Notes: a model not told the origin generated them from the sequence alone. A DNA stretch of 64,000 nucleotides from Caerostris darwini (GCA_021605075.1 BPLQ01015363.1:963513-1027512); one strand, 5' to 3'; numbered from the stretch's first letter, positions 3,213 through 62,640 are shown. Made by a program: numbers and translations.

Positions 3213-3236
3213 TATATATATATATATATATATATT
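3211..3236. repeat. (TA)n microsatellite abutting the right end of Tc1-A. Similar (TA)n tracts occur at 1991–2003, 6829–6850 and 52257–52284.
   Basis: The repeat is directly visible in the sequence. Confidence 0.9.
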
Positions 3237-41891: not shown

Positions 41892-42483
41892 GTATGTTTT
41901 TGTTGTAATTAATTTATTAAAAATTTCGTATTCATGTTTTGTTTTTAAATATTTACTAGCTATAGATAATATTTAAAAAATTTTATAATTGGTTAAACAC
42001 CATACTTCATTTTACATTACTGAATACTTGATGTATGCTACTTTTTGAATATATTATTTTTTTTATTAATTTTTTTTTTTTTTTTTTTAAATTAATATGC
42101 GTTCTTTCACTAATGGTCAGACTATATGAAGATATATTTGAAGATGTATAAATTTAAAATTCACATGTTATTTTAATTATCATAAATATTTAAATACTTA
42201 CTCTTCATATATTATACTCATTAATAATTTATGAGAAAACCATTTTTCCTTTTTATATATTTTGCATGTCCTCCTTTGTTGTTAACTTTTCTCATTGAAA
42301 AATAGTATTTAGTGGATGAAAAATTTTGTGAGAAAAATAATTTTTAATAATATAGAATTTGTTCATATGATTTGATCATCAGTCATTATAATTATTTAAA
42401 TAAGGTATTTAATAAAGCTAGCTTCACTTAGTCAATCTATGCTATTTGTGCTCAAGATAGCTAATGTTTACTTTTAGAATAAT

Positions 42484-42779
42484 GGGGCCTGATGGTTCAG
42501 TGGCTAACACTCTGGCGCTCGGTTCCACAGGTTTCGGGTTCGATTCCCGGTGGGGCCATGGATGTTTGTAGTGGTTCGGAGTCCAATTTAAACCGTAGGT
42601 CCCGGTCTAATAGTACCGTAGAGCGTTGTGGGGGGGTAGTGTTACTCACGTCTGTAGCATATCTTCAAGCTATACGTGCTCCTGGGTAGTGTTAAATGAG
42701 TAACAATGTTGCAGTCCTTGTTTATTGCATAAAGATTAACTGTCTCTGTATTGCCAGCTGCATTGGAACAACAACAACC
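42484..42779 (+). mobile_element. tRNA-derived SINE, copy A, lying in intron 21.
   Basis: The tRNA-like head carries A box TGGTTCAGTGG and B box GGTTCGATTCC. The conserved core reads CCATGGATGTTTGTAGTGGTTCGGAGTCC…GTAGGTCCCGGTC. It is flanked by an 11-bp direct repeat tttagaataat (42473–83 and 42780–90). Confidence 0.8.
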
Positions 42780-43014
42780 TTTAGAATAATAATATTGAAT
42801 CTAATAACTCGAATCTCTATCCACAACTTATAAGTGAAAAATGATAAAGTATAAATTCCTTCTTAGCATTAAACATATATATTTTTATACCCTTAAGTTT
42901 GTCTTGTTTTCCAACTGAAATTGCGTATCAAAACTTTTTTAACAAATTTGTACTTATTAGTCATGTGTTTATATTTAATTTTTTTGAGGTTAAATAAATG
43001 AGTTTGTTTTCTAG

Positions 43015-43116
43015 ATTCATGATGATTCAATTACTGGCATTTCAGTCGCTGGTTTATATATATTTACAAGCTCTTTAGACAAAACTTTGAAAGGATGGGA
43101 TACTACTCTAAACCAG
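43015..43116 (+). CDS. WD40 gene exon 22.
   Basis: The exon follows acceptor gtttgttttctag and ends at donor gtactt. The ORF reads IHDDSITGISVAGLYIFTSSLDKTLKGWDTTLNQ. Confidence 0.7.
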
Positions 43117-43588
43117 GTACTTGAAAACTTTGGTTTCTCATTACTTGTCTTTATTTGTGCATAGTTATGGTTTTTAAAAATTTATTTCATTTCAGTTATT
43201 TTTACATATATTTATTCGTCATTAAAATATGCTTAAAAATGAGGTCATAACTAATTTATATACATTTGTATTAAATTTTTAAAGTAATTTTCAGTTTAAA
43301 TTAATGTAATTTTTAACATTCTTCAGTAAGTGGTTTTATATATATTTACTCCTATTTTAAAATTGTTAAATTGTATGTAAATGCACGTAATAGTTAAAAG
43401 ATAAATCTCAGTTTCTCTCTTCAACCACCTTTTAAAATAATAGCCTGCCACACTTTTTTTTTCAAGAATATTTAAATTGCTAAAAACTGCTTTAAAATTA
43501 TTATTTAGAGTTTTTATTGGGTATAGTTAATAATTTGTAAAATAAAAAGGGATTACTATTTAAACTAAATGTTTTCATTTATTTATAG

Positions 43589-43735
43589 GTGTGCCAGTTT
43601 CATTCATCTGTACCTATTACTAGTCTTGTTGGATGTAAAGTAATAATTACTGAATCCTTTTCTACATATATTTTGCTAATTGGAACTTCTTCAGGAACTG
43701 TTCAATTATTGAAATTCCATGATAAAAGAGTTTAA
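43589..43735 (+). CDS. WD40 gene terminal coding exon (stop TAA at 43733–43735).
   Basis: The exon follows acceptor ttcatttatttatag. The ORF reads VCQFHSSVPITSLVGCKVIITESFSTYILLIGTSSGTVQLLKFHDKRV followed by the stop. Confidence 0.75.
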   Translation: MCQFHSSVPITSLVGCKVIITESFSTYILLIGTSSGTVQLLKFHDKRV

Positions 43736-44400
43736 AATTTTTGTTCTTCTAATGAAAGTGAATTCTGTTAAAAAAATTCATATTTTCTTAATTTTGCTTT
43801 GTATTAGTATTTTTGATTGTTTTTGTCTGATTTTAGTGTGATAATGCTACATTCCTATCTAATAAATATTTAAAATTATTTTGTTCTTTTTTTATTTAAT
43901 TAATTGTTATAAATGTGTAGATGAGGGAAAATGTACAAATAAATAGTTAAATAGGCATTGTTTGTGAAATTATTTGTATGTAACTCGAATATAATTTAAG
44001 AGGTAGGTTGGTCATTCAAGAAACTATTGTAGTTTCTATTTATTTTATTCTTAATTAATTAAGTCTTCATTAATTTTTGGTTAACAAAAATCTATTCATT
44101 TTATTAAGTAAATGAAAGTGAAATTATTTATTTTTTCATAAATCTAAAATAAACTACTTAATAGTCTAATGAGAAATCAAAAATGAAAATATTTGTAAAT
44201 TAAGTTGAAAATAAAATGCTAAGTTATGTTAATCTAAAAATATAATTACTACATTAATAACAAGTTATTTAGAAGACATTTTTTATGCTTAACTTGATGA
44301 CAGTAGAAATAAAATAAATCATTCTTGTAAATCTTAAAATATCATACTGAAACTGGTGATTTTCACTAGGTGTCAATTCAGTTTTCAAAACTATAGTTGT
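43736..44400 (+). other. 3' UTR and downstream flank of the WD40 gene.
   Basis: This region lies between the stop codon and the start of the repeat nest, and contains AATAAA at 43861. Confidence 0.4.
43861..43866 (+). promoter_or_regulatory. Probable polyadenylation signal (AATAAA) of the WD40 gene.
   Basis: An AATAAA hexamer lies 126 nt downstream of the stop codon. Confidence 0.45.
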
Positions 44401-44899
44401 AAACAAATGATTTAAAAAAGTATTTTTGATATATTTTCATAGTTGTATGCAGTAAGTATAGACAGAGTTATCCCTTGCACATTTAGGGGAAATGTAAAAA
44501 GTAAATTAAAAATTATTAAATTCAAAAATTAAAATCAACCATAGTTCAGCACCTCAAATATATCGAAAGATAATTAACCTCAGTTAATTAACTTTTTGCA
44601 AATGGGAAAATCCCTCCTAATGGGAATGAATGGATTTTCTCTGTAATAATTAAAGAGTTGATTGATGTCTTGAATAGACAGATTACAGGTAGGATTGTTC
44701 ACTTTGTGCATTAGTTATTAATTGACAAGAAATAGCATCTGTATCTCTGGGGTTGTCTGGGAACTGAAGAATGGCGCTTTGAAGTAGCTTCCATTGGTTC
44801 TTATTTTAAAACTGTTTCATGTGATATTGTTGAACTATTTATTGATTGTTAAGTTAACTATCCTATGACAAATTTACCAAGAATATTGAACTAGCAGTA

Positions 44900-46100
44900 A
44901 TTCTTTCTGCTATCATATCTGTAATTTATTTTCCAGGAATATCTATTAAAGAATGCTAATAAACATTTTTTGGCTAATTTGTCTAAAATGGATTTGTATT
45001 CCATGTTAAATGTAAAATGCAGAGATTTTTCCACGTTGCATTGGCCCTGAGAATCAAATTAAATGATTGATTAAAAAGGTCAGTTGTATGCATATAATGA
45101 TGGAAAGAGATCACAGTAAACATCTGCTAATTATGTTGTATTCCATTTTTATGAATATTAAATCAAGTTCTAAAGTATAAATTGTTTTTATACCAGGAAA
45201 TAAGACTTCTGTACATTTCTGTGACTTAGAAATAAGACTTTACATAACTAGGTGCTTTGAGATTTATACTCGTGCAAGCTGCTTTATCTCGATGTATCCA
45301 ATTACGCTTAAGAAGAATGTGTTTTAAAATATTCTTATTATATATATAGATGCTATTTTTGGGAGAAATCAAATTGAAGATTATTGTATCTGGCACGGGT
45401 TTTGCTAAAGAATCTGCTAGTTCATGTTTTGTTATGGCTTACGTGACATGGAGTTCAGACAAATTCTAAAGATAAAATTGAGTTCTAGTTTTTTCTTAGA
45501 TGATCTTCTAGAAGTTTGAAAATTACAGTTTTAGAGAAGAGAGAGACTATCTGATAAAATAATGTAGTTGTGCTTGGAATACAAATATAGTGATTGATTA
45601 AATCAGATCTAAACTAACTTTATTTTTCCATTCTTCTTCATGTTAAAAAATGTTCTTGGCTACATGATGTGGTAGTTGTTTATTCTGGAGGGGTAAATCG
45701 TCTAGGTGAAATGAAATTTTACAAATTGGATGCAGATTATAGGAAGGAGGAATATTTAAGTTTTTCAAAAGGTTAGCTAAAAAAGTCTGAAAGGAAATAG
45801 GATACTTCAGAGCAGAATAATCCTCAAATCTGAGTTATTTAAAAGACAGCGGAGGTTGGCTCGAAAGAAATTTGTTTTAGAAAAAGAGTTCAGATCTGGT
45901 CAGTTTCTTTGTATGACACTGGAATGGGAGTCTATTTGGAGACCTGTTGCGAACCGTAAATCAAGATTATACACTGTTGTGAGATGTTGGAGATCGCTGT
46001 GACGAGAGGAAATAAAAATAGGAGAACCATATTCCAGAATGCTACAAATAATGGAGTTACTATTCTGACGAGAGGGCAAGAACGTCAACCCCAAAATTTA
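44900..46100 (-). mobile_element. Degraded 3' half of a non-LTR (LINE) retrotransposon ORF2.
   Basis: The minus-strand ORF 45900–46094 reads …ICSILEYGSPIFISS…LQHLTTVYNLDLRFATG…, resembling the post-RT motif (…YG.PVW…L..VQN.A.R). Minus-strand translation of 45392–45427 gives HELADSLAKPVP, resembling the RNase H NE.AD.LAK motif. Confidence 0.5.
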
Positions 46101-46308
46101 GAAACTGTTGCTTTAATGGCATGTAGTTTAATAACTTTTTTTTTAATGTAAGAAACCTGTTGCTTGAAGTTGAGATTATGCGATAAAATAAGAACAAGAT
46201 GTTGTTTCTTGGAATATTAATGTTGTACATTTGCTGTGGTCTGTTTTGATCTTGAGTTCAAACATGCCTAATAACACATCTTTTGTTTGCAAAAATTAAT
46301 TTCTTCGC

Positions 46309-46309
46309 T

Positions 46310-46348
<39 letters not shown>

Positions 46349-46358
46349 CCTTTTTCTG
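46309..46358. repeat. Poly(T) tract of about 48 nt.
   Basis: The tract is directly visible. It lies between the two RT fragments on the minus strand, where it reads as poly(A). Confidence 0.9.
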
Positions 46359-46386
46359 CTTTAAGAGTGAAATTGCAAGTGTTACA

Positions 46387-46599
46387 TCATTGTGAGATCT
46401 TATGAAGTGATATTTGGAGATTTGATCCAGATATTATTAAAAACTCGTAGTTGTTAAAGATAGTAGTTGGGAGTATTTTGATAAGTTTGGCTGGAATACC
46501 GTCATTTCCAGGTGAGGTATTGGGAGTAAATTTAATTGCATCAGTGAGTTCAACGAAAAAAAAAGGATTATTATAATTGTGAGAGGAATCTTCAGACAA
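46387..46599 (-). mobile_element. Non-LTR retrotransposon RT N-terminal fragment (RT domain 0/1).
   Basis: The ORF reads …FTPNTSPGNDGIPAKLIKILPTTIF…, resembling the LINE RT motif SPGPDGIP..(F/L).K. Confidence 0.6.
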
Positions 46600-47221
46600 G
46601 TTTAAAGGAATAAAATGTGTGATAGAGGAGGGGGGGTATTATTCATCAAGAATTTCTTCTTCGCGGTTCCACTGTGATTGGAGAATTCTTCAAAGATGTT
46701 TTGAAACGAATGCAGCATTATTTGCTGGACAGTGGAAATTACTGTCGCTTGAAAGCTTTACAAGTCCATCTTGTATAGCAGTTTTTGGCGAGAAGGCAGG
46801 ATGTATATTTTATTTACTTTCCCTCTGCTTCCCACTCCTAGAATATTTTTTTATTTCCCAATTTGAAATTGAAGATGAAGGGGTGGCAGTATGAATCGAT
46901 AGAGGAGATTGAAGAGTCGCTGACGTCGAGACTCAATAGCGTTGGAGGCGTTTACGGACCTGCACATTCGTTTCAAGCATTGTATTGAATTGGAAGGAGA
47001 CTATGTAAAAGCTTAATATCAAATTTAAGTATATCATCTGTGTTATGTGTTCTGTATGTGATCAGTCCAAAACCTTTTTGAATACACAGTTATTTTCTAC
47101 ATTGCATGTTTTTTGCATAGTTTTTGCTATGCTCATAATCATTTAAAGAACATGGAAAATTTGATTTCAATGCGACTCATTTTATTGTAATTATTCTTCA
47201 CTTGAAATTGGTTTGAATTTT

Positions 47222-47760
47222 GATGGGAATATACATATAATTCTTCACTGTTTGTCACTGAACTCCTAAACGGCTGGACCGATTTTGATAAAAAAATTTG
47301 TTTGAATGGGTTTGAATCGATTTTGATAAAAAATGTTTCAGTGAGTTCCTGGATGTTTTAGATTAACAATTGGTCCTGGTAGGTGGCGCTGCAATCGCGA
47401 TAATACTTCTGTACGTGTGTTTATTACTGAACTCCTTCTAAACGGCTGGGCCGATTTTGATGAAATTTTTTGTGTATATTTGACAAAACATGGAGAATGT
47501 TTTTATGCTATCCCCATTGTTGTAAGTCACCATTAGATGGTGCTGCAATATATAAATTTCTATACCGTTCAACCAATCGCTATGAAAATTGGTAATAAGA
47601 TGTATTCGAGTATGGAAAATATGTTCGCCCTATCCACTTTATTGTTATTTGCCACCAAATGGTACTGCAGCATTTCATCTTATATGCCATGAAAACTAGT
47701 ATGCACGTATATCGGAACATGAAGAGTTATATTGTCTGTGAGTATTTATGGTATTCCTGA
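47222..47760. repeat. Tandemly duplicated units within the LINE debris.
   Basis: The unit actgaactcct(tc)taaacggctgg(a/g)ccgattttgat occurs twice (47260, 47430). A ~110-bp unit (…ctatcc.c.ttgttgt.a.t..ccacca.a.atggt.ctgca…) occurs about 2.5 times at 47380–47720. Confidence 0.6.
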
Positions 47761-47989
47761 AAAATAGAGGCCTGAGCCTGACTTTCTTTAACAAGTTGTA
47801 GAGTTTCCAAGACTTATTGCTAAATAATTTTGTAATTTCTTTGTAATATAATTGAAAGTAGTGCCAGTTTTTAATTTAGATGAAAAAGTGTCTCTTTTTC
47901 GGGGAGCGATATAGTCTCTGAGCTTCAACAAAAGAAGCAAAAAGCTTCAAGAAAATCCATTGAGAATTTTAAATTTTAGAAAATTTTCT

Positions 47990-48606
47990 TCTGCTTTACG
48001 TTTAGGACAATTAATGTCTGTGGCATTTTGATTTGCACTACAGTATTTGGGGATTTTGGCCGAGCACGATTCTATGGAATGTTGACAATACAGTATTCAC
48101 AGGCAATTGAATTTTAACAATTTGCTGTTGGACGAGTATATGAATGACATTTTTTACACTGACGAGGTTTATCATAAAACAGAGCAATTTTTTGTTGTGT
48201 TAACCATAATAGGACATCATCTGGCAAAATCATACCTAAAGTAGTAACTAAAACTGGAGTGGAAATGGTAGGCGTTGTCCGTTTTCCTGCAAATCTGCGA
48301 AGTTCTGTGACGGAGAAGTTTTCTTCTTCTAATTCCGTTACAAGTTCAGCGAGTGATATATCTGTAGATATACTATGCAGTAAAATCTGATAGAGATTTT
48401 TTCAGGGTAAAGGGAGGCCTTGATTGGAAACCCAGGATGGCTTTCATGATTCTTAGTTCTCTTGCGGTTTCAAAATGGACAGTTGATAAAAGTAGTTTTC
48501 CATGTCTAGTAATACACATATAATCAATATGTTTTAAGGTGGGGATTTTTGAAGCTATGTTGAGAACTCTGGGATGGGCTTTCGGTATTGCGCCGTTTGG
48601 AACTTC
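47990..48606 (-). mobile_element. gag/ORF1-like repeat unit, copy a, from a non-LTR retrotransposon. This is the best preserved copy.
   Basis: Minus-strand translation gives EVPNGAIPKAHPRVLNIASKIPTLKHIDYMCITRHGKLLLSTVHFETARELRIMKAILGFQ… followed by …ISTDISLAELVTELEEENFSVTELRRFAGK…PVLVTTLGMILPDDVLLWLTQQKIALFYDKPRQCKKCHSYTRPTANC and …NCPKRKA. It is homologous to copies b and c. Confidence 0.6.
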
Positions 48607-50135
48607 ACAATGATGAATGAACGAGCTCAGTGTTGATATGCTAATTATAAATTAAGAAAAAAGTCACGAGAAAGCATAATAAATAAAGTCTGAGTATATT
48701 TATAAGTAAGGTCTGAGATCTGGCGTCTGAACTGTAATCCATTAAATTAGTATTAGCGGTGATGTCCGCCATGCCAATCTCGAAACCAGTCCACATTAAG
48801 TGTAGGAACTTCTTTAATTTACATGAATTGAGAAATAAGTTAACAAAAAAATATAATTGAATAGGAAATACAGGTGACTTACCTGAAAAGACAAAATAAA
48901 TGAAAAAGGATCAAATACACTATTTTACCAGGATACCTTGACCCAAAAACTAAAAGACAAACCGAGAAAAAACTAAATCAAACTACTCAAAACTCACTAA
49001 TCAGTTTTCTCTCACACACAATATATGCTGTATTCATGTGTTGATTATGAATGCTGTATGTTATTCGCCATTTTAGGACTTTTCATTTCGTTTCTTAAAA
49101 TTGATTAAAAAAAATATGAGAACTTCTGAGAGGGAAGTCATTCGATTTTTCAGATAAAAGGTTTGCTGTCAATGTCAAATATTTGTCTGAACTATCATGA
49201 ATTGGAAATATATTTTGGTAAAAGTGTGATTTGAAAATACAACGTAAAAGTCTGCAAAAAATCTGTTGATATTCATACCAGCAATTGATTTTGAGCATCG
49301 AATTCATTCGAAATTTTATTGTTGGTTCAAGAGCATACATCAGAAGAATGGTGTAATAACTTGAGATGGCTCTTACAAAACAGTAACGAATAGAAAAATT
49401 GCACGAGAAAAGTTTGGTTGAAAATTAAACCAGGCAACCGATTACGAGAATTGGAGGATTTAGAGGGAATTGTAGAAGTTATTGAAAGCCTTCATTCAAG
49501 TAAAAAAATAACGCGGCTAGAATACTAGCTGAACAGTAGATTTTTATAGACTGTGAAACGAAGCTAAACAAATTTTTTAAATTAAAGTTAGGAATCGTAC
49601 TCCAAGCCCATTAATATCTCCAACAATGCTGCCTAAGGAACGACTATATTTTTAGAATATTGGAAAGATTACAGGTGATGAATCCGAAAGTGCTGGCAAA
49701 GCTCCCTTTTACAGTTAACCATCTCTACTATTTTGTAAATCCAGAGAGCACTGCATATACATAAGGTATCAAGAGACTACGGGGATCATCCAAATAGTGG
49801 ATCAATAAGTACTGCAGCAAGATTCTGCATCATTACTATACGTATCTTGCGGAATTCATGTGGAGAAATAAGGTTGGTCACATCTACTTTGATGTCATTT
49901 GAAACCAAACTGTTGCCCACCGGAAGTTCATAAAAAGTAGTACAAATAGTACAAATATTTTGACTGCATTCTTCACGATATATATTATTCACACTTATGA
50001 CAAAAACCGCATTACATTCTGATATCAATGATTGCGGTCCGGTTGACGATTTTCATTTCAAAGCTATTCGCGATATTCAAACTAATCTACAGATAGCATT
50101 TCAACATGGCTCACGATCTTTTACTTTTGTTCTCG

Positions 50136-50760
50136 AGGTTCCCAACGGCACAATTCCCAAAGCACATCCAAAAGTGCTAAAAGACAAAATTTCTTCCAAA
50201 GTAACTACTTTAAGATACATCGATTATATGCACGTCATCAGACAAGTTAAATTACTCATATCCACAGACCATTTTGACACTGCCCATGAATTGGAAAATA
50301 TGAAGGCTCTTATAGGTATCCCAATATCAATATCCCTTAACTCGATTTCTTCTTCACAACATCTCTACTGATATACTCCTAACAGGCCTTACCAAAGAAT
50401 TGGAAGAAGAAAATAATTTTTTAGTATCAGAACTAAGACTATTTTCCTGAAAACGAAATAAGTCTTTCTTATTCACACCTGTCTTAGTAACTATTTTGGG
50501 AAAAATTTTACCAGCATACATCAGATTATGACTCACACAACAGAAAATATCCTTATTTTTCTATAAACTCTGTCAATGCTTAGATAATGTTACTCTTTCA
50601 CGCATCACACAGCTAATTGTAAAAACTCCGGTTACATAAGAAATTTGCAGCGCTCAACATTCCACAGATTCATGCTCAGTCCTATTTACCAAATGCACTA
50701 ATTGTGGTGAGGAACATAGGCACAGACAACAACTGCATTAAACGCAAAGAAGAAGAAATA
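50136..50760 (+). mobile_element. gag/ORF1-like repeat unit, copy b. It is degraded and embedded in LINE-like sequence spanning about 49990–51200.
   Basis: ORF 49997–50371 reads …FVLEVPNGTIPKAHPKVLKDKISSKVTTLRYIDYMHVIRQ…. A degenerate knuckle KCTNCGEEH lies downstream. Confidence 0.55.
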
Positions 50761-51227
50761 CTTCTAAATTCAAAACACTCAACCGCCTTTCTTTTAGAGA
50801 CAGCTGCATACTTTATCATATTCAAAAGAACTGCAAACTGATACTTCTTTATCTACCTATTATGTTACAGAATACGAAATAACTCAATTGTTTAAACAGA
50901 ACGCCTTTGAAACCCAACAAATGATTAGAAAAATCTATCAAACACAAGCTTCAGTTTTCCACGCTTCCATTAAAACTTCTGCATGAAAAGCTTTTGCATC
51001 TGCCTTTCCCTCCTCTACCAAGCAATAACGAATCTATTAATATTAATATTAAGCAATAATGAAACTATCTACTCCCACCAAGTACAACTCCAATAACTGG
51101 ATTGAAAGATAAAAGAAAAAATATTAAAAACAAAAATTGACTACTAGGACACAATCGTATCAAACTTTACAGTTCCTGGTATTCAATTTTTAATCCTCTT
51201 TTCTTATCATAAATGATTTAATAACTT

Positions 51228-51300
51228 ATTAAATCGTTTAAGATAAGATAATTTAATAAAACAATGGATAATTTAATAAAACAATAGATAATTTAATAAG
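51228..51300. repeat. Short tandem repeat (gataatttaataaaacaat)n, about 3 copies.
   Basis: The repeat is directly visible in the sequence. Confidence 0.7.
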
Positions 51301-52255
51301 ATTATTTAATAAAAAATGAATTTATTGTTAGAACTAAAAATGAGATAGGTTAATAGCTGGATAAAAATGAGATAAGTTAAAAATAGCTGGATTTCTCAGA
51401 AATTAAAAAAAAAAAAACTCTTTTTAATAAGAACATGAAACATAAAGAAACTAAACAAATCATAGCTTTTATGTGCTTATGGGGATTTGTTAAATTTTTT
51501 AAAACAAATTGCAGTTTATTTTTATGAGGCTTTGAGTAATGCTTTTACGGATAATAGATATTGGGGTCGTTTATTTTGTTTACTTTTTATTACCGAAAAC
51601 AGTCGCAAACACTTTTTATTACAGTCTGCAGCCGTAAAATATAAAAAAGGAAGCGTTTTAGGTTTTCCTGTTCTTTTCTACTTTTCTAGTACTTTTTTTA
51701 GTTGCATTCATAAAACATTCAAGATGAAAAAATAGTTTTGCAACTTATTATATATACATTTGTTAATATTTTGTTTTGAAGATAATTAATATATTCTCAA
51801 ATGTTATTAAAGAAAAATTGAGAGTTTATTAATATATTAATATTTGGTATTCATTTTGCATATATTTTCTTGATTTGTTTTATAATAAGGGTATTTACAA
51901 TAATATAAAAAATTATTAATATGTATTTGGGATTCTTTATATATATAAACGTATAAATATGTAATATATTTCGTGTATTCGCCAAGGCGACTTGCTGTTA
52001 TTGGTAACCATAGGAAAATACCATGCGCACTAATACATTTACATCGCGTAGTGAGTGATACATGACTTTCTCATTCGAGAATTGATATTGTTATTTATTT
52101 TGTTTAAAGATTTTTTTTATCCCTTTTGTCTTTTACTTAGTTTGTCTTTTCAATTTTCTTTTCTCAAAGTGGAAGAGCGTTTTCATTTTTATTTAAGTTT
52201 TCATTTAATCACAGGCCACTACATATAAATATAATTTAATAATTAATTTTAAAAG

Positions 52256-52288
<33 letters not shown>

Positions 52289-52500
52289 GTATAGGTCTGC
52301 CTTGTTAATTTAACGCTTATTATGTTTTTTTTATTATTTAAATAAATAAATATAAAATACAAAATTTTAAAATAAGTATTAAAATGGCTATAAAACTGGA
52401 TAAAAATGGCTGTAAACCGGATATGACGTCGTACATTTTCTCTCGCATTTTTCTCGAAAACTATGGGTCGTAGAGGTAACAGTGCAATAACCGCATAGTT

Positions 52501-53528
52501 ATGGTACAAAGGAAGCATTTGGATGATTTTTTACGTGATAGAATTATCGGACGACTGGAATGGGGACGTACCCAGCTGGAAGTATCCGAGGAATTCGGAA
52601 TCGTCCAGAGTGTCATCTCCAGGCTTTGGCAACGATTCCAAGATGATGGTAATGTGAGTAGATGTTACAGCACAGGTCGCCCCCGAGTTACAACGCCGAA
52701 TGAGGACCGGTATTTAGCAGTTACTGCCAAAAGAAACAGACGGAGCACAGCATCAGACCTGTCTCGTCAGCTCTCTTCAGCTACCGGTACGACAGTTTCA
52801 AGGCAGACCGTGTACAGACGCTTAGGGCACATTGGTCTATATGCTCGTAGGCCTGTCAGATGTGTTCCACTTACCGCAACTCACTGTCGCCTGCAATTAA
52901 CCTGGAGTAGAGAGCATGCATTGTGGACACCGCAACAGTGGTCTTGTGTGATGTTTTCCGACTAGTCCAGGTTTAGTTTGCAGTCTGATTCTCGCCGGAC
53001 TTTCATATGGAGAGCGCCAGGTACCCGTTACCACCAAGAGAACACCATTGAACGACACGGTTACGGTGGTGCAGGATGGCTTGTTTGGGGAGGAATTATT
53101 CTTGGTTCCAGAACTGACCTGCATGTTCAGAGTGTAACGATGATAGGCCACATCTATCGGGATGTCATTCTGGAACAACATGTACGTTAGTTTCGGGCTC
53201 CATGGGTGCTGAATTTCTGTTTATGGATGACAACGCCCGTCCTCACCGTGCAAACATTGCAGACGAAAGCCTTCAATTGGAGGATATCACCCGTATGGAT
53301 TGGCTAGCATACTCACCGGACTTGAATCCAATAGAGCATGTGTGGGATATGCTTGGCCGACGAATTGCAGCCCGTCAACCCCCTCCCACCTGTCAACCGG
53401 AACTTCGGAGGGCATGGCTTGATGAGTGGTGTAATATTCCCCAAGATCAGATTGATAATTTGATACTCAGCATGCCTAGGCGTTGTAAGGCCTGTAGTGC
53501 ATCGTCCGGGAGACATACTCCATATTAA
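52501..53528 (+). pseudogene. Tc1 family B transposase, inactivated.
   Basis: An in-frame TAG follows VMFSD (ccgacTagtcc in this copy versus ccgacGagtcc in copy B). There is a frameshift before …MGAEFLFMDDNARPHRAN…SPDLNPIEHVW. The D-to-E spacing is 34 residues by my count. Confidence 0.8.
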
Positions 53529-53549
53529 CCATCATACTAACCATGTTAT

Positions 53550-53830
53550 TATATATTGGGCCTGATGGCTGAATGGCTAGCGCTCTGGCGTTCGGTACCA
53601 TAGGTACCGGGTTCAAATCCCGGCTTTGCCATGGGTGTTTGTAGTGGTTCGGAATCCGCTTTAAGCCGTAGGTCCCGGTCCTGTTAGGATCGTAGAGCGC
53701 TGCGGGGGCATTGTTACTTCGCGTCCGTGGCTTACCATCAAGTTACACGCGCTCCCTGTTTAACATCGTAACATCGGTGCAGCCCTTATGGCGAAGATCA
53801 CGGTCTATTTGCCTGCTGCATTAGAAGGAA
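53550..53830 (+). mobile_element. tRNA-derived SINE, copy B, inserted into the 3' UTR of Tc1 copy C.
   Basis: It belongs to the same family as 42484–42779. It is flanked by a perfect 14-bp target-site duplication, actaaccatgttat, at 53536–49 and 53831–44. The orthologous position in Tc1 copy B (34740–34800) is uninterrupted. Confidence 0.85.
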
Positions 53831-54244
53831 ACTAACCATGTTATACTGTTTTTTGTAAATAGGTTCTTTTTTGAAATTTGCTCCAGGGAGTAAAAATCGT
53901 AATTTTTATTAATTATGTCAAACATATAGCATCTTTTTTGCTCTTTACCTTTTGTTTAATAAATAGACTTTGCAAATAAGTCAAATTTGTTTTGCTTCTG
54001 TCTCTTTCTTTGCCTGAACTTCATTATCCTTAATTTATGGACATGAGTGTAAAAAGGGGAGGTGAAAGGGCCTCATAAGTGGAATAGCCGAGGGCCTCTT
54101 TTCATCTAAATCCGGCCCTGGCTGTATTAGATGAAGATTCTGAAAGGAAAGCATTAAAGCATGGGTGGCCAACCCGCGTCCCGCCTTGAATATTTTTCCG
54201 GCCCGTGAGATTTATCACACTCTTACAAATATATTTATTTTATA

Positions 54245-54720
54245 ATGGCCAAAGTAGTGAAAACAGCTGCTTTTGAAAGCCGATTCACAAATTTAGAGTT
54301 AGACAAATACAACAAAATTTTTGAAGTATATTCATCTCCTTTTCATGTTGAAATCGAATCGGCCCCAGAATATTTCCAAATGGGACTGGTTAACTTACAA
54401 TGCAATATTGAATTGAAAACATTTTTTAAACATCAGAATCAAAAATAAATTTTATAACACTTACGTCACAAAAGAGAAATTTTCCAATCTGAAAAATCTA
54501 GCACAAAAAGTTGTTAGCACTTTTGGCTAAACTTCCACCAGCGAATCGGATTTTTTTTCCCCCGTTCGAAAATGAAATTGACCAAACTCAAAACACATTC
54601 AAACATAATGGACGCTAACCTACCACACCAATTAGGATGTGGAATACCCAAATTGTTGAGGTCGATTTGCAGAAGTCAAGTGAAAGAGTGGAGGAACAAA
54701 TATCGCACTAGTAAAATAAA
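54245..54720 (+). mobile_element. Fragment of a hAT-superfamily (Charlie/ZBED-like) transposase C-terminal dimerisation domain, degraded.
   Basis: The fragment reads …SPFHVEIESAPEYFQMGLVNLQCNIELKTFFK… followed by …FSNLKNLAQKVVSTFG, then …MKLTKLKTHSNIMDANL…. This matches the hAT C-terminal pattern NPF.V…P…Q.ELI.LQ.D..LK..F…YP.L…A..L..FGSTY.CE..FS.M..IK.K.R..L. Stop codons and frameshifts are present. Confidence 0.5.
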
Positions 54721-55379
54721 TATTTTTTTAATGACTTCATTTTTTTCTATTTCATTTATATTTATACAGTTTTTATATTTCATTTTTTAGTGTTATATAT
54801 TTCTTTTACAATGTGCTTTTAGTATCATTATTATTATATTATCTATGTTCACATGTTAGAATAGTGATAACTTATTATGTTTCAATTTTTCACTCCGAAA
54901 AATGTCTATAGAGGGTATAAATCTAATATGGGAATATATAATTTTATATGCAGCCCGCGTAGTTATGATGCATTTCCAAAATGGCCAACGAGATCATTTG
55001 GGTTGGGGAGAGAGAGAATTAGAGAATTTGACGAATTGTCTTGTCCAGTTTAAAAGAGAAAAATTAAGAATAGAAATAGAGACATAATTATTTTTCTTTA
55101 TTTTATATTTATTTAAAGTTATTATTATTATTATTAAAAGTAATAAAATAATTGCGAGAAACAGAGCAATTAAAACAAAAAGAGAAAGTAAAAGAAAAGA
55201 AAAGAAAAAAAAATTAAATTTATTCATATAATGCAAGAACAAATTATTTAAGCATTAAATTATTTAAATATTTTTATTTATTTATTTTACGTATTAATTA
55301 ATTAAAAGTTATTTAAAAATCTAAACAAGGAGAAAAAAAACAAAAAAAAACTGTAAAAGGCAATTCGCTGAGAAAGTCG

Positions 55380-55690
55380 CAGACTCACAAGTTGAAAAGA
55401 CTAAAGGCTCGTTCCCACCGCAGCGTGAAGCGTTGAAGATTCATGCGGCAGGCAAGAGAATTTTTTCGACCCCTTTCAGAGCGAAACGTCGGAAATAGCA
55501 TTAAGCCTAGTGAAGTTCCGCTTCGAGTTCAAAGTTGGTCAACTCGAAACAGTGAATTTCAAACCGGTTTCAGGCGAACGTGGCGAGGCTAGTGATTTGT
55601 CAGCGCTTCTCGTTTAAAGCCTCACCTCTCGGTGGGAAGGAGCCTTAACTGGAGAGAACGGAATGGGTGATACAGTCAGTGTCTTTAACA
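55380..55690. other. Unassigned GC-balanced segment with 15-bp complementary ends. It may be the divergent 3' module of the adjacent minus-strand SINE, or a structured-RNA-derived repeat.
   Basis: GGCTCGTTCCCACCG at 55415 is complementary to CGGTGGGAAGGAGCC at 55625. The segment is contiguous with SINE copy E and has no protein-coding signal. Confidence 0.25.
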
Positions 55691-55858
55691 GAAGTGGGGG
55701 TTTGGTTTGGTTTGTCGCTCTACGGTCATCTTGTGCACACGAGGGCTAAACAGATCAGGATCTACAGTTTAAAGTGGATTCCGAACCACTAACATACATC
55801 CATGCCAACGCCAGGATTCGAACCTGAAGCCTGTGATTCAATGGTCAATAGTAGTGGG
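55690..55858 (-). mobile_element. tRNA-derived SINE, copy E. The head and core are present and the tail is divergent.
   Basis: The reverse complement reads …ggcttcaggttcgaatcctggcgttggcatggatgtatgttagtggttcggaatccactttaaactgtagatcc…, which is the B box plus the family core. Confidence 0.65.
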
Positions 55859-56789
55859 GGAAACGGATTGAGACATATATACCTTCATATTACACAGTGC
55901 TGCAAATTATAAAGCAGGAAATTTCATTACATTTTTAAAAACATTGTAAAATTTTAAATTTCGTTCAGAAATGTATTTTTATTTCTATCACAGTGTTTTT
56001 CAGGTAAAAAAAAATACATAAAAAAAAATCATTTAATGCAATTTGAATATTTTTTTTATTTACTATTAAATTTACATAATGCAAAAATATACATTACTAT
56101 GATACAACAAACTTATTGAGAAATTTATCATTGCAGATTTTATTAATGTAAAGGATTAATATAACTCAATTTATAAAGTGACCACGAATTATTTTGTTTA
56201 AAACATTCTCGAATTTTTTATTTTATATATAAGAATCTTTCAAGCGGTATATTTTATTAATTTCCATTGATCTTTACTGATGGCTATAAGAAAAATTTTA
56301 CACGTGTAATTAATTAATATGTAAAATTTTATTTGGAAATTTAAAAGAAATTTATTTATTAAGAAAAACGATTTTTATATTAAAAATAAAAGTAACACTT
56401 TTCCTCACTAAATATTTTTTAGTAAAAAAAAATATATTTGTATATTTAATTTTTTTTTTTTTTTTTTTTTGTCAAGTTTGATAATTAGTAGCCACATAAT
56501 CAAAGAACGAGAAGAGTCAGCATTCAGATACAAATATGATCCACTGTCACAATGAACACTTATTTTGATAAACATTCCTAGTTTGCATCAGTTGTATAAA
56601 AATTCTGTATTTATGAAACATTAGTAGAGCATTAAAAAAATATCATAGAATAAACATGAAAAACATAATAGAAATAAATGAAATGAAAGTATTAAAAAAT
56701 TGAGATTAAAAAATAATTTAAATGTCTAGTTACTTCGGATTATCACATATGTAGATTATTTTGTACAATATTTTTGCGACTACAAATTA

Positions 56790-57013
56790 TGTATAGAAAT
56801 AGCCCAAAGTTATTCACTCAGCACTACCTAGAAGGTGCGTATAACTTGAAGATAAGCTACGGACGCGGAGTAACACTACCACAACGCTCTATGATCCTGT
56901 TAGACCGGGACCTACGGTTTAAAGTGAATTCCGAACTACTACAAACATCCATGGCACCACCAGAACTCGAACCCGAAACCTGAGGTACAGAGCCACTCTA
57001 CCATTCAGGCCCT
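56790..57013 (-). mobile_element. tRNA-derived SINE, copy D, on the minus strand.
   Basis: The reverse complement reads agggcctgaatggtagagtggctctgtacctcaggtttcgggttcgagttctggtggtgccatggatgtttgtagtagttcggaattcactttaaaccgtaggtcccggtc…. ORF 56774–56983 lies inside it and is spurious. Confidence 0.8.
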
Positions 57014-57616
57014 GTAAAAAGCTTATTGTCGATAACATTCTTCAGATAATTATTTCTTTAAGCGGAAACACATAACCACTCGGTTATTAGATAGTCAAAC
57101 CTCTACGTCTTCTAATTAACTTTTTTTTAAAGGGGGCATCTAGGAGAAGGACACATTAACAGTCAAGCTTGAGAACGTAAGCAACATTTGGTTCGCATGA
57201 GGTAGATTTGAATTATTGAAAATGCTTTCTTTTTTTATTGAGAAGTCAGTGGATTTAATTTCGCAGCGTTAATCTCAATTTATCCTGTTGTTTTGTTCTA
57301 GGTTTTTCTGGTAATACAGAATTGATTTCCTTTTTTTTTTCTTTGATTTCCACCGTTCAGGTAAGTCACCTGTATTTATTTGCATTTATTTTCAATTTTT
57401 TTTTCTCTGGGTTTTTGTTAACGACTTAATGTGAGTTTAGAAGCCCCAACACTCTGAGTGGGCGAGCTTAGAGTTTTAACATGGCAGATAATAATTTAAA
57501 TTCTAATCTCATGGAATATACCTCCGAAGTTTATCTTACTTTCATTTCTCATCGGGACATAATTTCAAAATTACAAATTATATAGGAAAATGGCGCTCTT
57601 TCCTTTATTTTATTCC

Positions 57617-58260
57617 AGGTTCCGAACGACGCGATACCAAAAGCACATCCCAGAGTTCTAAAGGAAAAGATATCGTCAAAAGTAACTACCTTGAAATATA
57701 TTGACTGTATCCGTATCACTCGACGAAACGAATCCTATCTACTACTCACTTTGATACAGCCAAAGAATTGGCAAAAATAAAAGCCATTAGGGGAGTTCCA
57801 GTCAAAGCATCTCTTTACCCAGAAAAGATCGCCACCAGATTTCTGCTTTATAACATTCCTACAGATATATCACTTGAAGAACTTGCATCAGAATTGGAAG
57901 AGGAAAATAATATATCTGTCACAGAACTCATGCGATTTGCAGGAAAAGGAGCAGCACTGACGTCTTCCACCCCAGTTTTAATTACTGTATTAGGTACAAT
58001 CTTGCCAGAAAATGCTAGATTATGGCTTACAACAAAAAATATCTCTGTTTTATGATAATCCCCGTCAGTGTCGTAATGTTATTCCTATGCTCACCCAACA
58101 GCAAATTATAAAAATTCAATGGCCTGGGAATTCTGCAGCGATAGACATATTATAGGCTCGTGCTCAACTCAAATTCCTAAATGTATCAATTGCAGTGAAA
58201 CACATAAAACCACTGATGTTAATTGTCCCAAACGTAAAGCCTAAGAAAAATTTCTGCAAT
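57617..58260 (+). mobile_element. gag/ORF1-like repeat unit, copy c.
   Basis: The translation reads …VPNDAIPKAHPRVLKEKISSKVTTLKYIDCIRITRR… and ORF 57768–58055 reads …NIPTDISLEELASELEEENNISVTELMRFAGKGAALTSSTPVLITVLGTILPENARLWLTTK…. A knuckle IPKCINCSETHKTTDVNCPKRKA follows. Confidence 0.6.
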
Positions 58261-58379
58261 TTAAGACTTTTAACAGACTTTCTTTCATTGAAGATCGGAA
58301 ACTATATCGCGTTCCGAAGGAAGACTCCTTTCCCTCCAAAGTTAAAGCTGATACTATTTCCAATTTGATTACAAACGAT

Positions 58380-58520
58380 GAAATTACAAAATTATTTCAA
58401 CAGCAAGCCATGGAAACACGAAAATTTGGGCTGAATTCATCCTCATTATGCCCGATCTGCAAGACTCCGGAAACAATTAAACACATTTTTTTGGATCCAT
58501 AAAATAAGTAGAAGCATGAA
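58380..58520 (+). mobile_element. Possible non-LTR ORF2 C-terminal Cys/His motif.
   Basis: The translation …FGLNSSSLCPICKTPETIKHIFLDP* resembles the C-X2-C-X6-8-H motif found at LINE ORF2 C-termini. Confidence 0.35.
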
Positions 58521-60139
58521 ATAAACTGCAAAGTGATTATGGATATAGAGTTCTGATTTACTCTTGGATATTTGATATGCCAGATGATGCTTATTATAAG
58601 ACACAACAGTACTTTAATTTCTACGAAAAATCTAGTAATCCTGTAAGCTATGGGGGTACCCTCACTTTTTCTATCAGAGGTTATTATTTCTTTTTCACTT
58701 TTTATTTCAAGTACTAGTTGTGCTTTATATTTTCTAATTATCGTTCAACTGTTGAAATATTATGGTCTGTTAGATCTGAAGTTTTACCCATTTTTCTTCT
58801 TTTTCAAATTTACTTTTTTTATTTATATTCTTTTGGTTGATAGAAAGTACGAGCAACGATTCTTGTGTTTTAACAGGAATTTGTAAGCCGTCATAAGCAA
58901 CGAATTCAAAAATTCCGAGTTTTAGAATAAAGGTTTCATTTCCACTTTTTAAAATTTTTTTTATCTGTTGTATATTTTAAAAAGCATTTGGATAAATTGA
59001 GATAAAACAGCATCAGCGAGCATACAACTCAAAGTACCAAGTCGCATGTGCTTTAGTAAAAACGAAAACAAAACGGGAAACGAAACTTTTGTAGAAGGGA
59101 ATTCCCCTGATTTATTATCTGTGATAAGGTTTTAAATATAAATTTAACGACCAGACGCAGCTTATCATTTTCGTGTTGAATGTACGCGAAAAGTAGGAAA
59201 AAAAAGTAAATTGCTGTAAGTTAAATTGATATTCTTATTAGTTTTTAAAAATTTATCTTAAACTATTTCATATTGTATTATGTGCACTATTGTTTGTATA
59301 GTATATATTCAAAGTAATGCTATTTCTTTTGCACATTATTTAAACAGAAGAAAAATTGTTCCACATTTACTCTGCATTATAAATTAATCTATTAATGCTA
59401 TTAAAAAAACTATAATTGAAATTTTCTTTGAATTGGTATATAATAACAATAATTCAAATATAATAATACTTTAATCGAATTTTGCAACACTATGCGAATA
59501 AAAACCATTTTTTGGGGGTTTTAAACAATTATTTAATAGCATATTTATTTAATTGTAAAAGAAGTTGTTCTTCGTGTTATTGTAATATAGTAAAAAGTTT
59601 TATTAAATTTCAAGAATAGAATGCATTAATATTTAAATTAGGAATTTATGTACAAAGACTTTCATGTATATATTTAATGAGACATTAAATGAGTTTTAGA
59701 AAGTTTATTAGAAATGCATGTTTTTCAAATTACTGTTTAAATATCAAGTTGAATTAATTTATTACAAAAATGTTCTTAAAATATCTTATATTGTTCTGTG
59801 GATTATAAAAATCTTATAAGATTTATGCTCACTTATGGGCAGTTTTATCTTGAATTATTTGAATAAATTTCAAAATTACTATGCAAGTTATTTGGTTGAT
59901 AAACGAGTAATTTCAGTTTTCACAAAAAATACATTGTAAAAACTGAACATACTTTCTTGTAAGCACAATATTTCATAGTTCAATTTTTTTTAATTTTAAT
60001 TTTTTGAAATTGTAGAATTATTTTTTTGTGTTATTATTTCAACTGAAAATTTTAATATGCTTAAAAAAAAAATTGTAATGCCTCAATTTATTAAAAACAA
60101 TTTTCTCAAAATTTATTATATATGGAATATTAGATAACT

Positions 60140-60431
60140 GGGGCCGGATGGCCGAGTGGCTAGCACTCGGTACCACAGTTTTCGGGTTTGGGTCCCGACT
60201 GTGCCATGGATGTTTGTAATGGTTCGGAACCCACTTTAAACCATAGATCTCGGTCTAATTTTGATCATAGAGCATTGTGGGGGTATTGTTACTCTGAGTC
60301 TGTAGCTTTTCTTTAAGCAACATGCCCCCCTGGGTAGTGCTAAGTGAGTAAAGTCGGTGCAGCCTTTGTTCATGACATAAAAGACGACTGTCTAATATGT
60401 ATTTGCCAGCTGCAGTAGAAACAAAACATGA
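60140..60431 (+). mobile_element. tRNA-derived SINE, copy C.
   Basis: The head reads ggggccggatggccgagtggctagcactcggtaccacagttttcgggtttgggtcccg, followed by the core ccatggatgtttgtaatggttcggaacccactttaaaccatagatctcggtc. The flanks (tagataact and ttgataact) form an approximate target-site duplication. Confidence 0.8.
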
Positions 60432-62640
60432 TTGATAACTATAATAACACACATTCACATATGTTTTAATGACAAAACTATATAACTAATCAAAACAGCT
60501 TGAATATTGCTTATGAATTAATTTAACTTTATTTATTATGATTTTATTTTGAGAAGTGAAGTATAAATTGATCATTATTATATTTTTATTGAATATGCTA
60601 AAGTTTTATTTTATTAAAATTTTATTAATGTGTTAGTGTCAGAATAATTTAATTTATGAATGGACATTGAAGCTTCTTTTTCTAAATTACCATTTTTCAA
60701 TCTTAATTTTTTTTTTTACTTTAACAATAATTTTACTTCAAAGGTCATGTTAATGGTAATATTTTTAATATTTAAGTACTTTGTTATGACTTAAAAACAA
60801 AAATTAAATTACAACTTATGAAAAAATGTCTTGATGTGTACCATGCTAGGGATATGTTGGGACAGCACTGAAATAAGAATGGAGCATATTGATAATGTTA
60901 TGTTTTTATAATTCTATTTTTATATTTTTTTATTTGTATAACTAATAATATTTAACTTAAAAAAATGATTGATTGGTTAAAATGACTAATAAAAATGATT
61001 TACATTTGCAAAATAATTTATTAATGATTAAATTAATTATTCACAGTGTATTTTCAATTATATAAGGACATCTTGACTAGGCAACATTTTAATGTTATAG
61101 AGGATAGTGTTGATGTCACATACCTCATTGGTGGTGGAGGTTATAATGCAATGATTTTTATATCAACTGTACTGACATGTTCTGTGAGAATAAATTTTTT
61201 GTTTTTTCTCCTTGGAAAGCACACAATCTCTTTATTAAACACTTTTAATCTGACCTATATAATGCACTTATTTATTTGTAGCAGAATTTTCGATATAGTA
61301 TTTTAATACGACTCAAGTTTTTTATTGCATCTCACCTACTTATGGGTTCATCATTTTAAGTTTTTAGTATGTAACAATGACATTATAACAACTCTAATTA
61401 GATACTAGTATCCAAATTAAGATTCACACTTCTGCCAGGCTAATTATTAACATAAGCATAAAAAATTTAGCTTCAATATGTTTATTGTACACTATAATCT
61501 TTTAATAGTAATGTATTGGGATTGTGTCAATTTTCCCCCATAAATCAGTGTCCCAATGGATCATTTTCTAAATGGATGCTTATTATTCATTTTCTAGAGC
61601 ACATGGAACTATGATTTGTATTGGAAAAGAAAGTTTAATTGTTTTTATAGACATGGTATATTTCTCAAATTAATTACTTTTCTTTCTTTAATTGAAATGT
61701 TTATATTCACAGAATTAAGAAAAATTGTTTTATATGACAAAAAAATTTTATCTTGCTCTTAAAGCAGCAGTCTTCAAGGAATAGTTGAAATTGCAATTAC
61801 AAGCATGTCCTTTATGGGTCATCATATAATTTTTTACAGTTTCTATTTTTCAATATTTGGTAAATTGTAGCCTTTGTCCTAATGTGGCCTCTCTTCCTCT
61901 AGTAATGAAGTTCTACCACTATTTCTGAAAATCTGGAAAAGGCTTTGGCTTTTATTTGCTTAATTATTCGCCTAACTTGTTCGTCATAAAATTTCCTTGA
62001 AATTGCTGTGAATCTTTTCTGTGATGATTATTAAAAAATTTTTAATGATTTATTTGTATTCAATTATAATAATATTTTTTGCTTTAATTATATTTATGTT
62101 TGCCAGTTTCAGTGATCTCAAAATTTATTAGTTGAGTCACACAAATAGAAATTAAAATTTAAGTAGTATATCTAGTGAAGATTAAAAATTATGCTTTAAG
62201 TTATTTTTTTTGTTTTTTTTTTGTTTGCAGTAACATTGCACTTTCTGAGTTGTTCTACTTTATATTATATAACAAAAAAATACATTTTACATTTCACATT
62301 TATGATTCTTCAAATCAGTTTTGTTTTCTAAAGCATGTTAATCATCTTTTTTTATAAATTTCATGAAATGTGTTTAGTTTTACTTTTTTAAAGTGTTTTC
62401 AGGTTTTTTAATCATTGGCATTTTGTAACAGGTTGTGAAGATGAAAAATGAAATATTATTAATGCATGCTAAGAAAAATATAATAAACAACTGAGAAAAA
62501 AAAAACTATTCAATATTTTACTTAAACTCTTCACTTTCCTTTCTTAAACAATTACTATTTATTCAATTTCTATATTTTATAATTTATTTGAATCTTAAGT
62601 AGCTAATCTTCTTAGAAAATAAATTGCTGTATATGCATTT

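Follow-up and report, generated by a model that had tools for sequence, protein, structure and literature searches.

Three homologous segments lie in the 64,000-nucleotide stretch of Caerostris darwini DNA analysed here (the window), at 47990-48606 on the minus strand (copy a) and at 50136-50760 and 57617-58260 on the plus strand (copies b and c). The first-pass annotation had presented them as ~640-bp units with an identical sharp 5' boundary and unrelated upstream flanks. By blastn, copies a and c match between 48603..47792 and 57619..58428 with 70.9% identity over 835 columns (~810 bp, E 1e-111), while copy b matches a and c with 64% identity over ~710 bp each (E 2e-25 and 9e-30, respectively). 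The consensus motif proposed for the boundary, AG(G)TTCC.AACG.C.C.AT.CC.AAAGC.CATCC, was found at 48606(-), 50136 and 57617, and the homologous peptides quoted along with it were recovered in the translations of the copies. The homologous copies are real, but they form no 640-bp unit and have no common 5' end. On the 3' side, homology extends 170-360 bp further than proposed in each copy, up to 47792 (a-c) or 47741 (a-b) in copy a, ~50977-51121 in copy b and 58428 in copy c. On the 5' side, the ATG of an ORF1 stands 46-47 codons before the boundary, at 48772, 49997 and 57481 in a, b and c, respectively.

State of the three copies

Copy a (minus strand) comprises a 5'UTR (48773..48967), which includes a conserved 42-nt block at 48866-48907 and is homologous to the 5'UTR of copy c (windowed identity 0.64-0.68 back to 48967), and an ORF1 pseudogene (47741..48772) covering family-profile positions ~1-300, with HMM matches at 48597-48397, 48389-48090 (iE 3e-35) and 48084-47944. 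This ORF1 is damaged by a ~32-nt insertion in its N-terminal part and by several frameshifts and stops. Collinear ORF2 remnants follow 3' on the same strand (45909..46617; HMM iE 1.5e-10, 4e-4 and 9e-7), with 46617-46462 corresponding to profile positions 414-465 and 46315-45909 to 708-840. Most of the RT core (profile 466-707) is absent, and 146 nt with an A40 run stand in its place. A distal ORF2 remnant of the same element lies at 45247..45301 (minus strand) and is homologous to 58988-59042 (56-nt block, score 51 against a shuffle mean of 27.6, sd 2.8). Strand, order and proximity are our only grounds for grouping the ORF2 remnants of 46617-45247 with copy a as a single insertion.

Copy b (plus strand) is the most diverged and consists of an ORF1 pseudogene at 49997..51121, with HMM matches at 50051-50626, 50337-50828 and 50810-51121. 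Its reading frame starts with the ATG at 49997, stays open over 124 codons and is frameshifted thereafter, reaching profile position ~374/405; no ORF2 was detectable downstream of it. Two adenine runs were also seen, an A13 run at 51407-51420, 3' of copy b, and the A40 run at 46308-46350 inside copy a, neither of which is tied to an element end.

Copy c (plus strand) has a 5'UTR at 57272..57480, homologous to that of copy a, with the conserved block at 57336-57377, followed by an ORF1 pseudogene (57481..58428, profile 11-312, HMM match 57732-58424, iE 2e-62) that carries a stop at codon 35 and two or more frameshifts and ends at a deletion junction. There it is fused in frame to the final ~80 ORF2 residues (58413..58630), which hold a C-terminal CX2CX7HX4C-type motif, LCPICKTPETIKHIFLD. 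Relatives of this tail are P0155 (aa 1121-1148 of 1199, 43% identity) and P0153 (up to aa 1201), and it also matches zf-RVT (E 0.015) and profile positions 1164-1208 of 1238 (iE 0.004); each of these matches is short and, taken singly, weak (E 7e-5 to 0.04 in small databases). Compared to full-length relatives, ~3.6 kb are absent, and the HMM and protein matches uphold the large internal deletion that had been proposed to join ORF1 to the Cys-His motif of the ORF2 C-terminus. A second and weaker C-terminal ORF2 fragment lies ~360 nt 3' of this tail (58988..59189, plus strand), with a DNA block in common with 45301-45247 and weak tblastn matches, and probably represents a distinct copy with a truncated 5' end. 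The copy c tail (58413-58760) showed no significant similarity to the region 3' of copy a (z 1.6).

ORF2 is thus left in the window only as fragments (profile 414-465, 708-840 and 1164-1208), with weak traces only of an RNase H in the copies, and no intact copy or RT core of this family was found within the window. No 3' tail, target-site duplication or element terminus could be defined for a, b or c. Also, no long direct or LTR-like repeats flank the copies, and an Rfam scan of 42000-61000 gave no match.

The ORF1 family, its fold and its relatives

The ORF1 proteins of the copies were translated by stitching across frameshifts by hand; the six-frame HMM scan is independent of this stitching. 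The family counts 2,489 cluster representatives at E<=1e-3 and 79 at E<=1e-30, with a typical length of 400-470 aa, and a word-indexed protein search returned a single relative, C. darwini CDAR_464901. No ORF1 domain was recognised by a Pfam scan of the stitched translations and of seven full-length relatives. The AlphaFold model of the relative P0151 (mean pLDDT 82, and >90 for residues ~20-280) has two tandem RRMs, then three CCHC knuckles and a ~55-residue C-terminal helix. The beta-alpha-beta-beta(-beta) units of the model span residues 42-114 and 120-189, a region over which the window copies align, and the best Foldseek matches are tandem-RRM proteins, namely NONO, SFPQ, hnRNP A1 UP1, nucleolin and ETR-3 RRM1+2 (probability ~1.0 over 137-157 columns). 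The knuckles read CX2CX4HX4C, CX2CX3HX4C and CX2CX3HX6C, and their Cys and His residues are invariant or >90% conserved in the family alignment. A PDB profile search returned marginal knuckle matches only, with HIV NC weakly similar (E 0.035-0.1). The gag/zinc-knuckle character and the LINE ORF1 identity suggested for these segments thus both hold, in that the CCHC knuckles are gag-like and the family is the ORF1 of a LINE.

The domain architecture of the element was read from relatives whose ORF1 is only ~30-35% identical to that of the window copies. In contigs L001 and L002, the ORF1 relative is followed 108-112 nt downstream, on the same strand, by an ORF2 with an endonuclease (Exo_endo_phos_2, E 3e-16 and 8e-21, respectively) and a reverse transcriptase (RVT_1, E 1e-35 and 5e-39). 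This is the arrangement of APE-type LINEs, and the ORF2 remnants 3' of copy a are collinear with it. The L002 ORF2 also has an RNase H (RNase_H, PF00075, E 2e-10), and the other ORF2 of the pair ends at its contig edge before that region. Full-length ORF2 relatives of ~1200 aa with endonuclease, RT and RNase H occur in Araneus ventricosus, Trichonephila clavipes and Nymphon striatum, and PF00075 is present in most full-length ORF2 relatives.

In the classification of Khazina and Weichenrieder, a Type I LINE ORF1p has at least one RRM immediately upstream of the CCHC knuckle(s), as summarised for the I, Jockey, R1, Tad1, plant L1 and L2 clades (PMC4120745). In the model, the ORF1 fold is that of a Type I ORF1p, with two RRM-like domains and then three knuckles, encoded just upstream of an APE-RT ORF2. 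Unlike Type I ORF1p, the modelled family has an extra N-terminal beta/alpha segment and the C-terminal helix; it is matched by no Pfam model, and its RNA binding is predicted here. Elements of the I-group (I, Nimb, LOA, Ingi, Tad1 and similar) are said, following Malik, Burke and Eickbush in 1999, to carry an RNase H after the RT. The relatives' ORF2, which combines APE, RT, RNase H and a C-terminal Cys-His motif and accompanies a Type I ORF1, resembles that of I-group LINEs, with the RNase H C-terminal to the RT in L002 and in most full-length relatives. We describe the remnants in the window as a LINE that is I-group-like, a grouping based on domain content.

Spider relatives appear in databases as 'mobile element jockey' or 'transposon BS'. 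Jockey-clade elements are not known to have an RNase H in ORF2, whereas the relatives carry one, which speaks against placing them in the Jockey clade sensu stricto; therefore these names are probably best-hit labels only. A retroviral or LTR-retrotransposon Gag was rejected as well, since the fold is a tandem RRM, LTR-like direct repeats are absent and the neighbouring ORF encodes APE, RT and RNase H.

Sequence across the boundary

Contrary to the description of the upstream flanks as unrelated, the ORF1 N-terminus precedes the boundary in a, b and c, and the 5'UTR is common to a and c. In copy c, the 46 codons 5' of the boundary resemble the N-terminus of the C. darwini protein P0001 (23/44 identical, E 1e-15). 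The copy b ORF aligns with P0001 without gaps starting at Met1; its N-terminal 47 residues alone gave no match to P0001 by blastp, and the alignment emerges with the whole ORF and the HMM. With an HMM built from outside relatives only, the alignment begins at 50051 in b and 57529 in c, that is 85-88 nt 5' of the boundary, and family matches begin at profile positions ~5-40, also 5' of the boundary (profile 47/48). Moreover, the ATG context and the 42-nt 5'UTR block are common to a and c (83%, z 9.4). It was right, as judged by eye, that visible DNA similarity begins at the boundary, as the ATG-to-boundary segments (135-184 nt) are not significantly alike between copies (z 0.7-2.9 vs shuffles). 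It is the protein alignments and the family profile that support homology of these segments upstream of the boundary.

The information content of the family is <1 bit at residues 1-20, 1.2-1.6 at residues 21-40 and >2 from residue 51, and the boundary corresponds to the end of the strand formed by residues 42-48 of the P0151 model, inside the confidently folded N-terminal domain. Mismatch rates at codon positions 1/2/3 are 0.21/0.14/0.40 for c vs a and 0.30/0.21/0.48 for c vs b, third positions differing 2-3 times as often as second positions. Therefore the copies diverged under selection, and DNA similarity is therefore visible only where the protein is constrained. The "sharp 5' boundary" is the start of the well-conserved part of ORF1 and no element end. 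Sublineages would have split while the ORF1 protein was still under selection, so that constrained codons remained alike and drift took the 5'UTR and the ~45 initial codons past what DNA comparison can recognise. The apparent common onset would then fall on (E/Q)VPNGxIPKAHP, the earliest motif under strong conservation. Both the family profile and full-length relatives continue across this point, which speaks against the edge of an independently mobilised gag-derived module. The unit is an inner portion of a longer conserved element that has no boundary at this place, an outcome that the first-pass annotation had itself named as counting against its reading.

Origin of the copies

Very probably, the segments go back to three separate, old insertions of one APE-type non-LTR (LINE) retrotransposon family, all of them now dead. 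Intact relatives consist of a 5'UTR, an ORF1 of ~420-440 aa, a ~110-nt spacer and an ORF2 of ~1200 aa. Their ORF1 is predicted to be an RNA-binding chaperone with a variable N-terminal segment, two tandem RRMs and three CCHC knuckles ahead of a long helix at the C-terminus, and their ORF2 provides an apurinic-type endonuclease, a reverse transcriptase, an RNase H and a C-terminal Cys-His motif. Copying presumably proceeds by target-primed reverse transcription, as judged from the family. The three copies likely come from different sublineages. After insertion, a deletion of ~3.6 kb in copy c would have removed what lay between ORF1 codon ~315 and the final ~80 ORF2 codons; in copy a, the C-terminal part of ORF1, the endonuclease region and the RT core would have disappeared and foreign sequence would have been gained, and copy b would have kept ORF1 alone.

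HAL1 ('half-L1') elements are ORF1-only derivatives of mammalian L1. We consider it improbable that the structure seen in c (5'UTR, ORF1, last 80 ORF2 codons and 3'UTR) defines a non-autonomous HAL1-like family served by ORF2 protein in trans, and marginally less probable still that copy c is itself an amplifying ORF1-plus-tail derivative, a spider counterpart of mammalian HAL1 mobilised in trans by full-length relatives. As in HAL1, the copies keep ORF1 and none of the three has a usable RT; copy c retains both element ends around a clean in-frame ORF1/ORF2-tail junction, and b has nearly the whole ORF1 and no ORF2. If true, copies of the c type would retain an ORF1 for RNA binding, together with the 5'UTR and the 3' end on which recognition depends. 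However, the junction occurs in one copy only, as a and b go on in ORF1 for at least ~50 nt past that point; ORF2 remnants lie 3' of a, and a protein search across the junction found no spanning protein. Stops and frameshifts run throughout all copies, and random post-insertion deletion accounts for the data. Unlike HAL1, the window copies are pseudogenes with differing breakpoints.

The remaining readings fare worse. A 5'-truncation hotspot, at which reverse transcription was repeatedly halted at the same nucleotide of a LINE ORF1, is highly improbable: it would fit the by-eye onset of DNA similarity, which a, b and c have at one common motif, and the dissimilar DNA of the 135-184 nt before it, but it is refuted for these three, all of which keep the start codon 46-47 codons upstream and N-terminal coding sequence, two of the three together with a 5'UTR whose block is common to a and c, and the point sits within a folded domain. 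We give almost no credence to a splice acceptor paired with the conserved CAG|GTAAGT of the 5'UTR block as donor, a reading in which the unit would be an exon, either from a multi-copy, intron-containing gene or from a LINE transcript that is spliced. A pyrimidine-rich stretch and an AG do stand right before GTTCC in 3/3 copies, and CAGGTAAGT is common to a and c ~250 nt upstream. This reading was rejected because the AG closes a Glu/Gln codon of a frame that continues upstream to the ATG; family proteins have an N-terminus homologous to the product of that frame, and the supposed intron contains the start codon and is missing from none of the copies. Just as little can be said for local segmental duplication of one insertion followed by neutral decay: the three copies do lie inside 11 kb, but their divergence of 29-36% is concentrated at third codon positions, similarity is limited to constrained coding sequence and does not reach the flanks, and one copy is inverted.

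The three segments are ordinary transposon debris, of small significance beyond annotation, and are to be masked as LINE (I-group-like) remnants rather than as genes or a new mobile module. They illustrate that uneven selective constraint along a protein can mimic a sharp common start between diverged transposon copies with no structural boundary. They also belong to a widespread arthropod ORF1 family, with tandem RRM and three CCHC knuckles, which has no Pfam model and is therefore labelled 'uncharacterized protein' by automated annotation.

Homology of the three copies and of their upstream sequence

By using blastn, we could confirm that the three segments delimited by the first-pass annotation are homologous. 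Copy a (48603..47792, minus strand) and copy c (57619..58428) share 70.9% identity over 835 columns (E 1e-111), and copy b shares 64% with a and with c over ~710-730 columns (E 2e-25 and 9e-30, respectively). The motif at the proposed common 5' start, AG(G)TTCC at 48606 (minus strand), 50136 and 57617, and the quoted peptides were found in the copies. The locations hold but the 3' ends do not, as homology reaches 47792/47741 in a, about 50977-51121 in b and 58428 in c. All three copies contain stops and frameshifts and are pseudogenes.

The 135-184 nt directly 5' of the motif show no significant DNA likeness (z 0.7-2.9 versus shuffles), so that the annotation, in calling the upstream flanks unrelated, described what can be seen by eye. 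However, N-terminal coding homology and a 5'UTR shared by a and c indicate that these flanks are related. The closest database protein, and the only close one, is Caerostris darwini CDAR_464901 (P0001; 220 aa, 67% identity), in which 47 residues precede the EV(A/P)NG motif. The ORF of copy b starts with an ATG at 49997, exactly 47 codons ahead of the motif, and aligns without gaps to P0001 from Met1. The translation of copy c 5' of the boundary, from the ATG at 57481, is identical to the N-terminal residues of P0001 at 23 of 44 positions (E 1e-15), and in copy a, too, the reading frame opens with MAD...NLMDYSS (at 48772), after which ~32 nt have been inserted. With an ORF1 HMM made solely from 54 family members outside the window, alignment begins at 50051 (b) and 57529 (c), that is 85-88 nt 5' of the boundary. 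The 5'UTR sequence common to a and c includes a 42-nt block (48866-48907 / 57336-57377; 83%, z 9.4), which could be a promoter or RNA element of the LINE family. Within it lie a small hairpin (CAGGT-AAGTC-ACCTG) and a perfect splice-donor-like sequence (CAG|GTAAGT).

A LINE ORF1 family and the origin of the sharp boundary

In a profile search against 1.84 billion representative proteins, we found 2,489 relatives at E<=1e-3 (79 at E<=1e-30), most of them 400-470 aa long and aligned from profile positions ~5-40 onward; Pfam has no model for this ORF1 family. For two relatives on Logan contigs, a second ORF begins 108-112 nt downstream; it encodes Exo_endo_phos_2 and RVT_1 on each contig, and on L002 also RNase_H. 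Full-length ORF2 relatives (~1200 aa) have the same domains and come, among other sources, from the spiders Araneus ventricosus and Trichonephila clavipes and the sea spider Nymphon striatum. Given these neighbours with endonuclease, RT and RNase H, the family represents ORF1 of an APE-type LINE with an RNase H domain in its ORF2. By domain content, it would belong to the I group and not to Jockey proper, in spite of the source labels "jockey" and "BS" on relatives.

The AlphaFold model of the ORF1 relative P0151, which drew on a 53-sequence alignment (mean pLDDT 82; >90 for residues ~20-280), begins with a beta/alpha segment, continues with a pair of beta-alpha-beta-beta units and the knuckle region, and ends in a long helix. 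Its best Foldseek matches were the tandem-RRM proteins NONO, SFPQ, hnRNP A1 UP1, nucleolin and ETR-3 RRM1+2. The three CCHC knuckles vary little or not at all across the family; in copy c they read CRNCYSYAHPTANC, CEFCSDRHIIGSC and CINCSETHKTTDVNC, and some cysteines are mutated in the window copies. This is the architecture of "Type I" ORF1p, in which an RRM lies directly upstream of CCHC knuckles (PMC4120745). The family is common and its architecture known.

The boundary had been proposed to be a 5'-truncation hotspot or the edge of an independently mobilised module. The upstream coding homology excludes truncation at this point for a, b and c. Copy c aligns with P0151 from its residue 11 (E 4e-51), and the boundary falls at P0151 residues ~47-50, at the end of a modelled strand (42-48, local pLDDT ~95); in the model, this point lies well inside a folded domain and not at a module edge. 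We also considered a splice acceptor, since an AG precedes the motif in all three copies and the shared 5'UTR block offers a donor-like sequence. This reading fails, as the AG is part of a Glu/Gln codon, and the frame to which this codon belongs runs back to the ATG and shows homology to the N-termini of the family. Neither the absence of homology in the flanks nor the codon-position pattern agrees with a local duplication: in the RRM2 region, mismatches at positions 1/2/3 are 0.21/0.14/0.40 for c versus a and 0.30/0.21/0.48 for c versus b. It follows from this pattern that much of the 29-36% divergence arose before insertion, in separate active sublineages under purifying selection. Information content, computed over the 54 family members, rises along the protein from <1 bit per position (residues 1-20) through 1.2-1.6 (21-40) and 1.8 (41-50) to >2 from residue 51 on. 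Constrained codons stay recognisable in DNA while the variable N-terminus and UTR do not, and the visible onset thus falls, in every copy, on the first strongly conserved motif. The copies are ordinary decayed LINEs whose boundary results from uneven constraint.

Deletions and ORF2 remnants

Copy c runs on the plus strand from the 5'UTR (at least from 57272) to ORF1 profile position 312 of 405 at 58424, and continues in frame into LCPICKTPETIKHIFLD. This stretch corresponds to the end of ORF2 in relatives, with its Cys-His motif and final ~80 residues; the hits are to P0155 (aa 1121-1148 of 1199), P0153 (as far as aa 1201), profile positions 1164-1208 of 1238 and, weakly, zf-RVT. Because ORF1 in a and b extends ~50 nt or more past this junction point, copy c has undergone an internal deletion of ~3.6 kb joining ORF1 to the ORF2 tail, in agreement with the large deletions previously proposed. 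Such an ORF1-plus-tail form could be an amplified, HAL1-like non-autonomous derivative. However, the breakpoints differ among a, b and c, so private deletions are the simpler account; a protein search across the copy c junction found nothing.

Copy a is followed on the minus strand by collinear ORF2 remnants at 46617-46462 (profile 414-465) and 46315-45909 (708-840), with weaker traces to ~45250. Missing from the element are the C-terminal part of ORF1, the endonuclease region and the greater part of the RT core, and the gaps hold foreign sequence and an A40 run. This run of ~40 A (46308-46350, minus strand), exactly at the missing RT core, may have come from the tail of a different retroposed insert or from the expansion of a simple repeat. 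Between the ORF1 and ORF2 remnants, 46890-47060 (plus strand) resembles by eye a mariner-type transposase C-terminus (…FPNLKLKMKGWQYESIEEIEESL… / …RFKHCIELEGDYV), and the foreign sequence 3' of ORF1 contains an 82% direct repeat (47249-47301 and 47418-47473). Copy b reaches profile position ~374 of 405, AT-rich tandem repeats come next, and no ORF2 was detectable after it. Tandem copies of GATAATTTAATAAAACAAT lie after copy b at 51226-51300, and an A13 run at 51407-51420.

A 56-nt block is common to 58988-59189, ~360 nt past the copy c ORF2 tail, and to the distal copy a ORF2 remnant (45247-45301; z ~8). The former region also resembles ORF2 aa ~1055-1155 weakly at the protein level, and together this suggests a second, 5'-truncated copy head-to-tail after copy c.

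Other repeats

The window is AT-rich (GC about 22-42%), and its Tc1-type transposon remnants and tRNA-derived repeats make it look like repeat-rich animal DNA. A tRNA-derived SINE-like repeat occurs in five copies of 77-82% identity in both orientations (42517-42704, 53569-53755, 55746-55840, 56837-57011 and 60145-60351), had no Rfam match at gathering score, and includes a tRNA-Arg(tcg)-like fold found by ARAGORN at 56915-57011 (minus strand). One copy adjoins the 5' side of copy c. Tc1-type remnants (HTH_Tnp_Tc3_2 and DDE_3) lie at 2135-3247 (plus), 34792-35620 (minus) and 52501-53528 (plus). The latter two encode nearly identical proteins, and one remnant falls inside the span of the three LINE copies.
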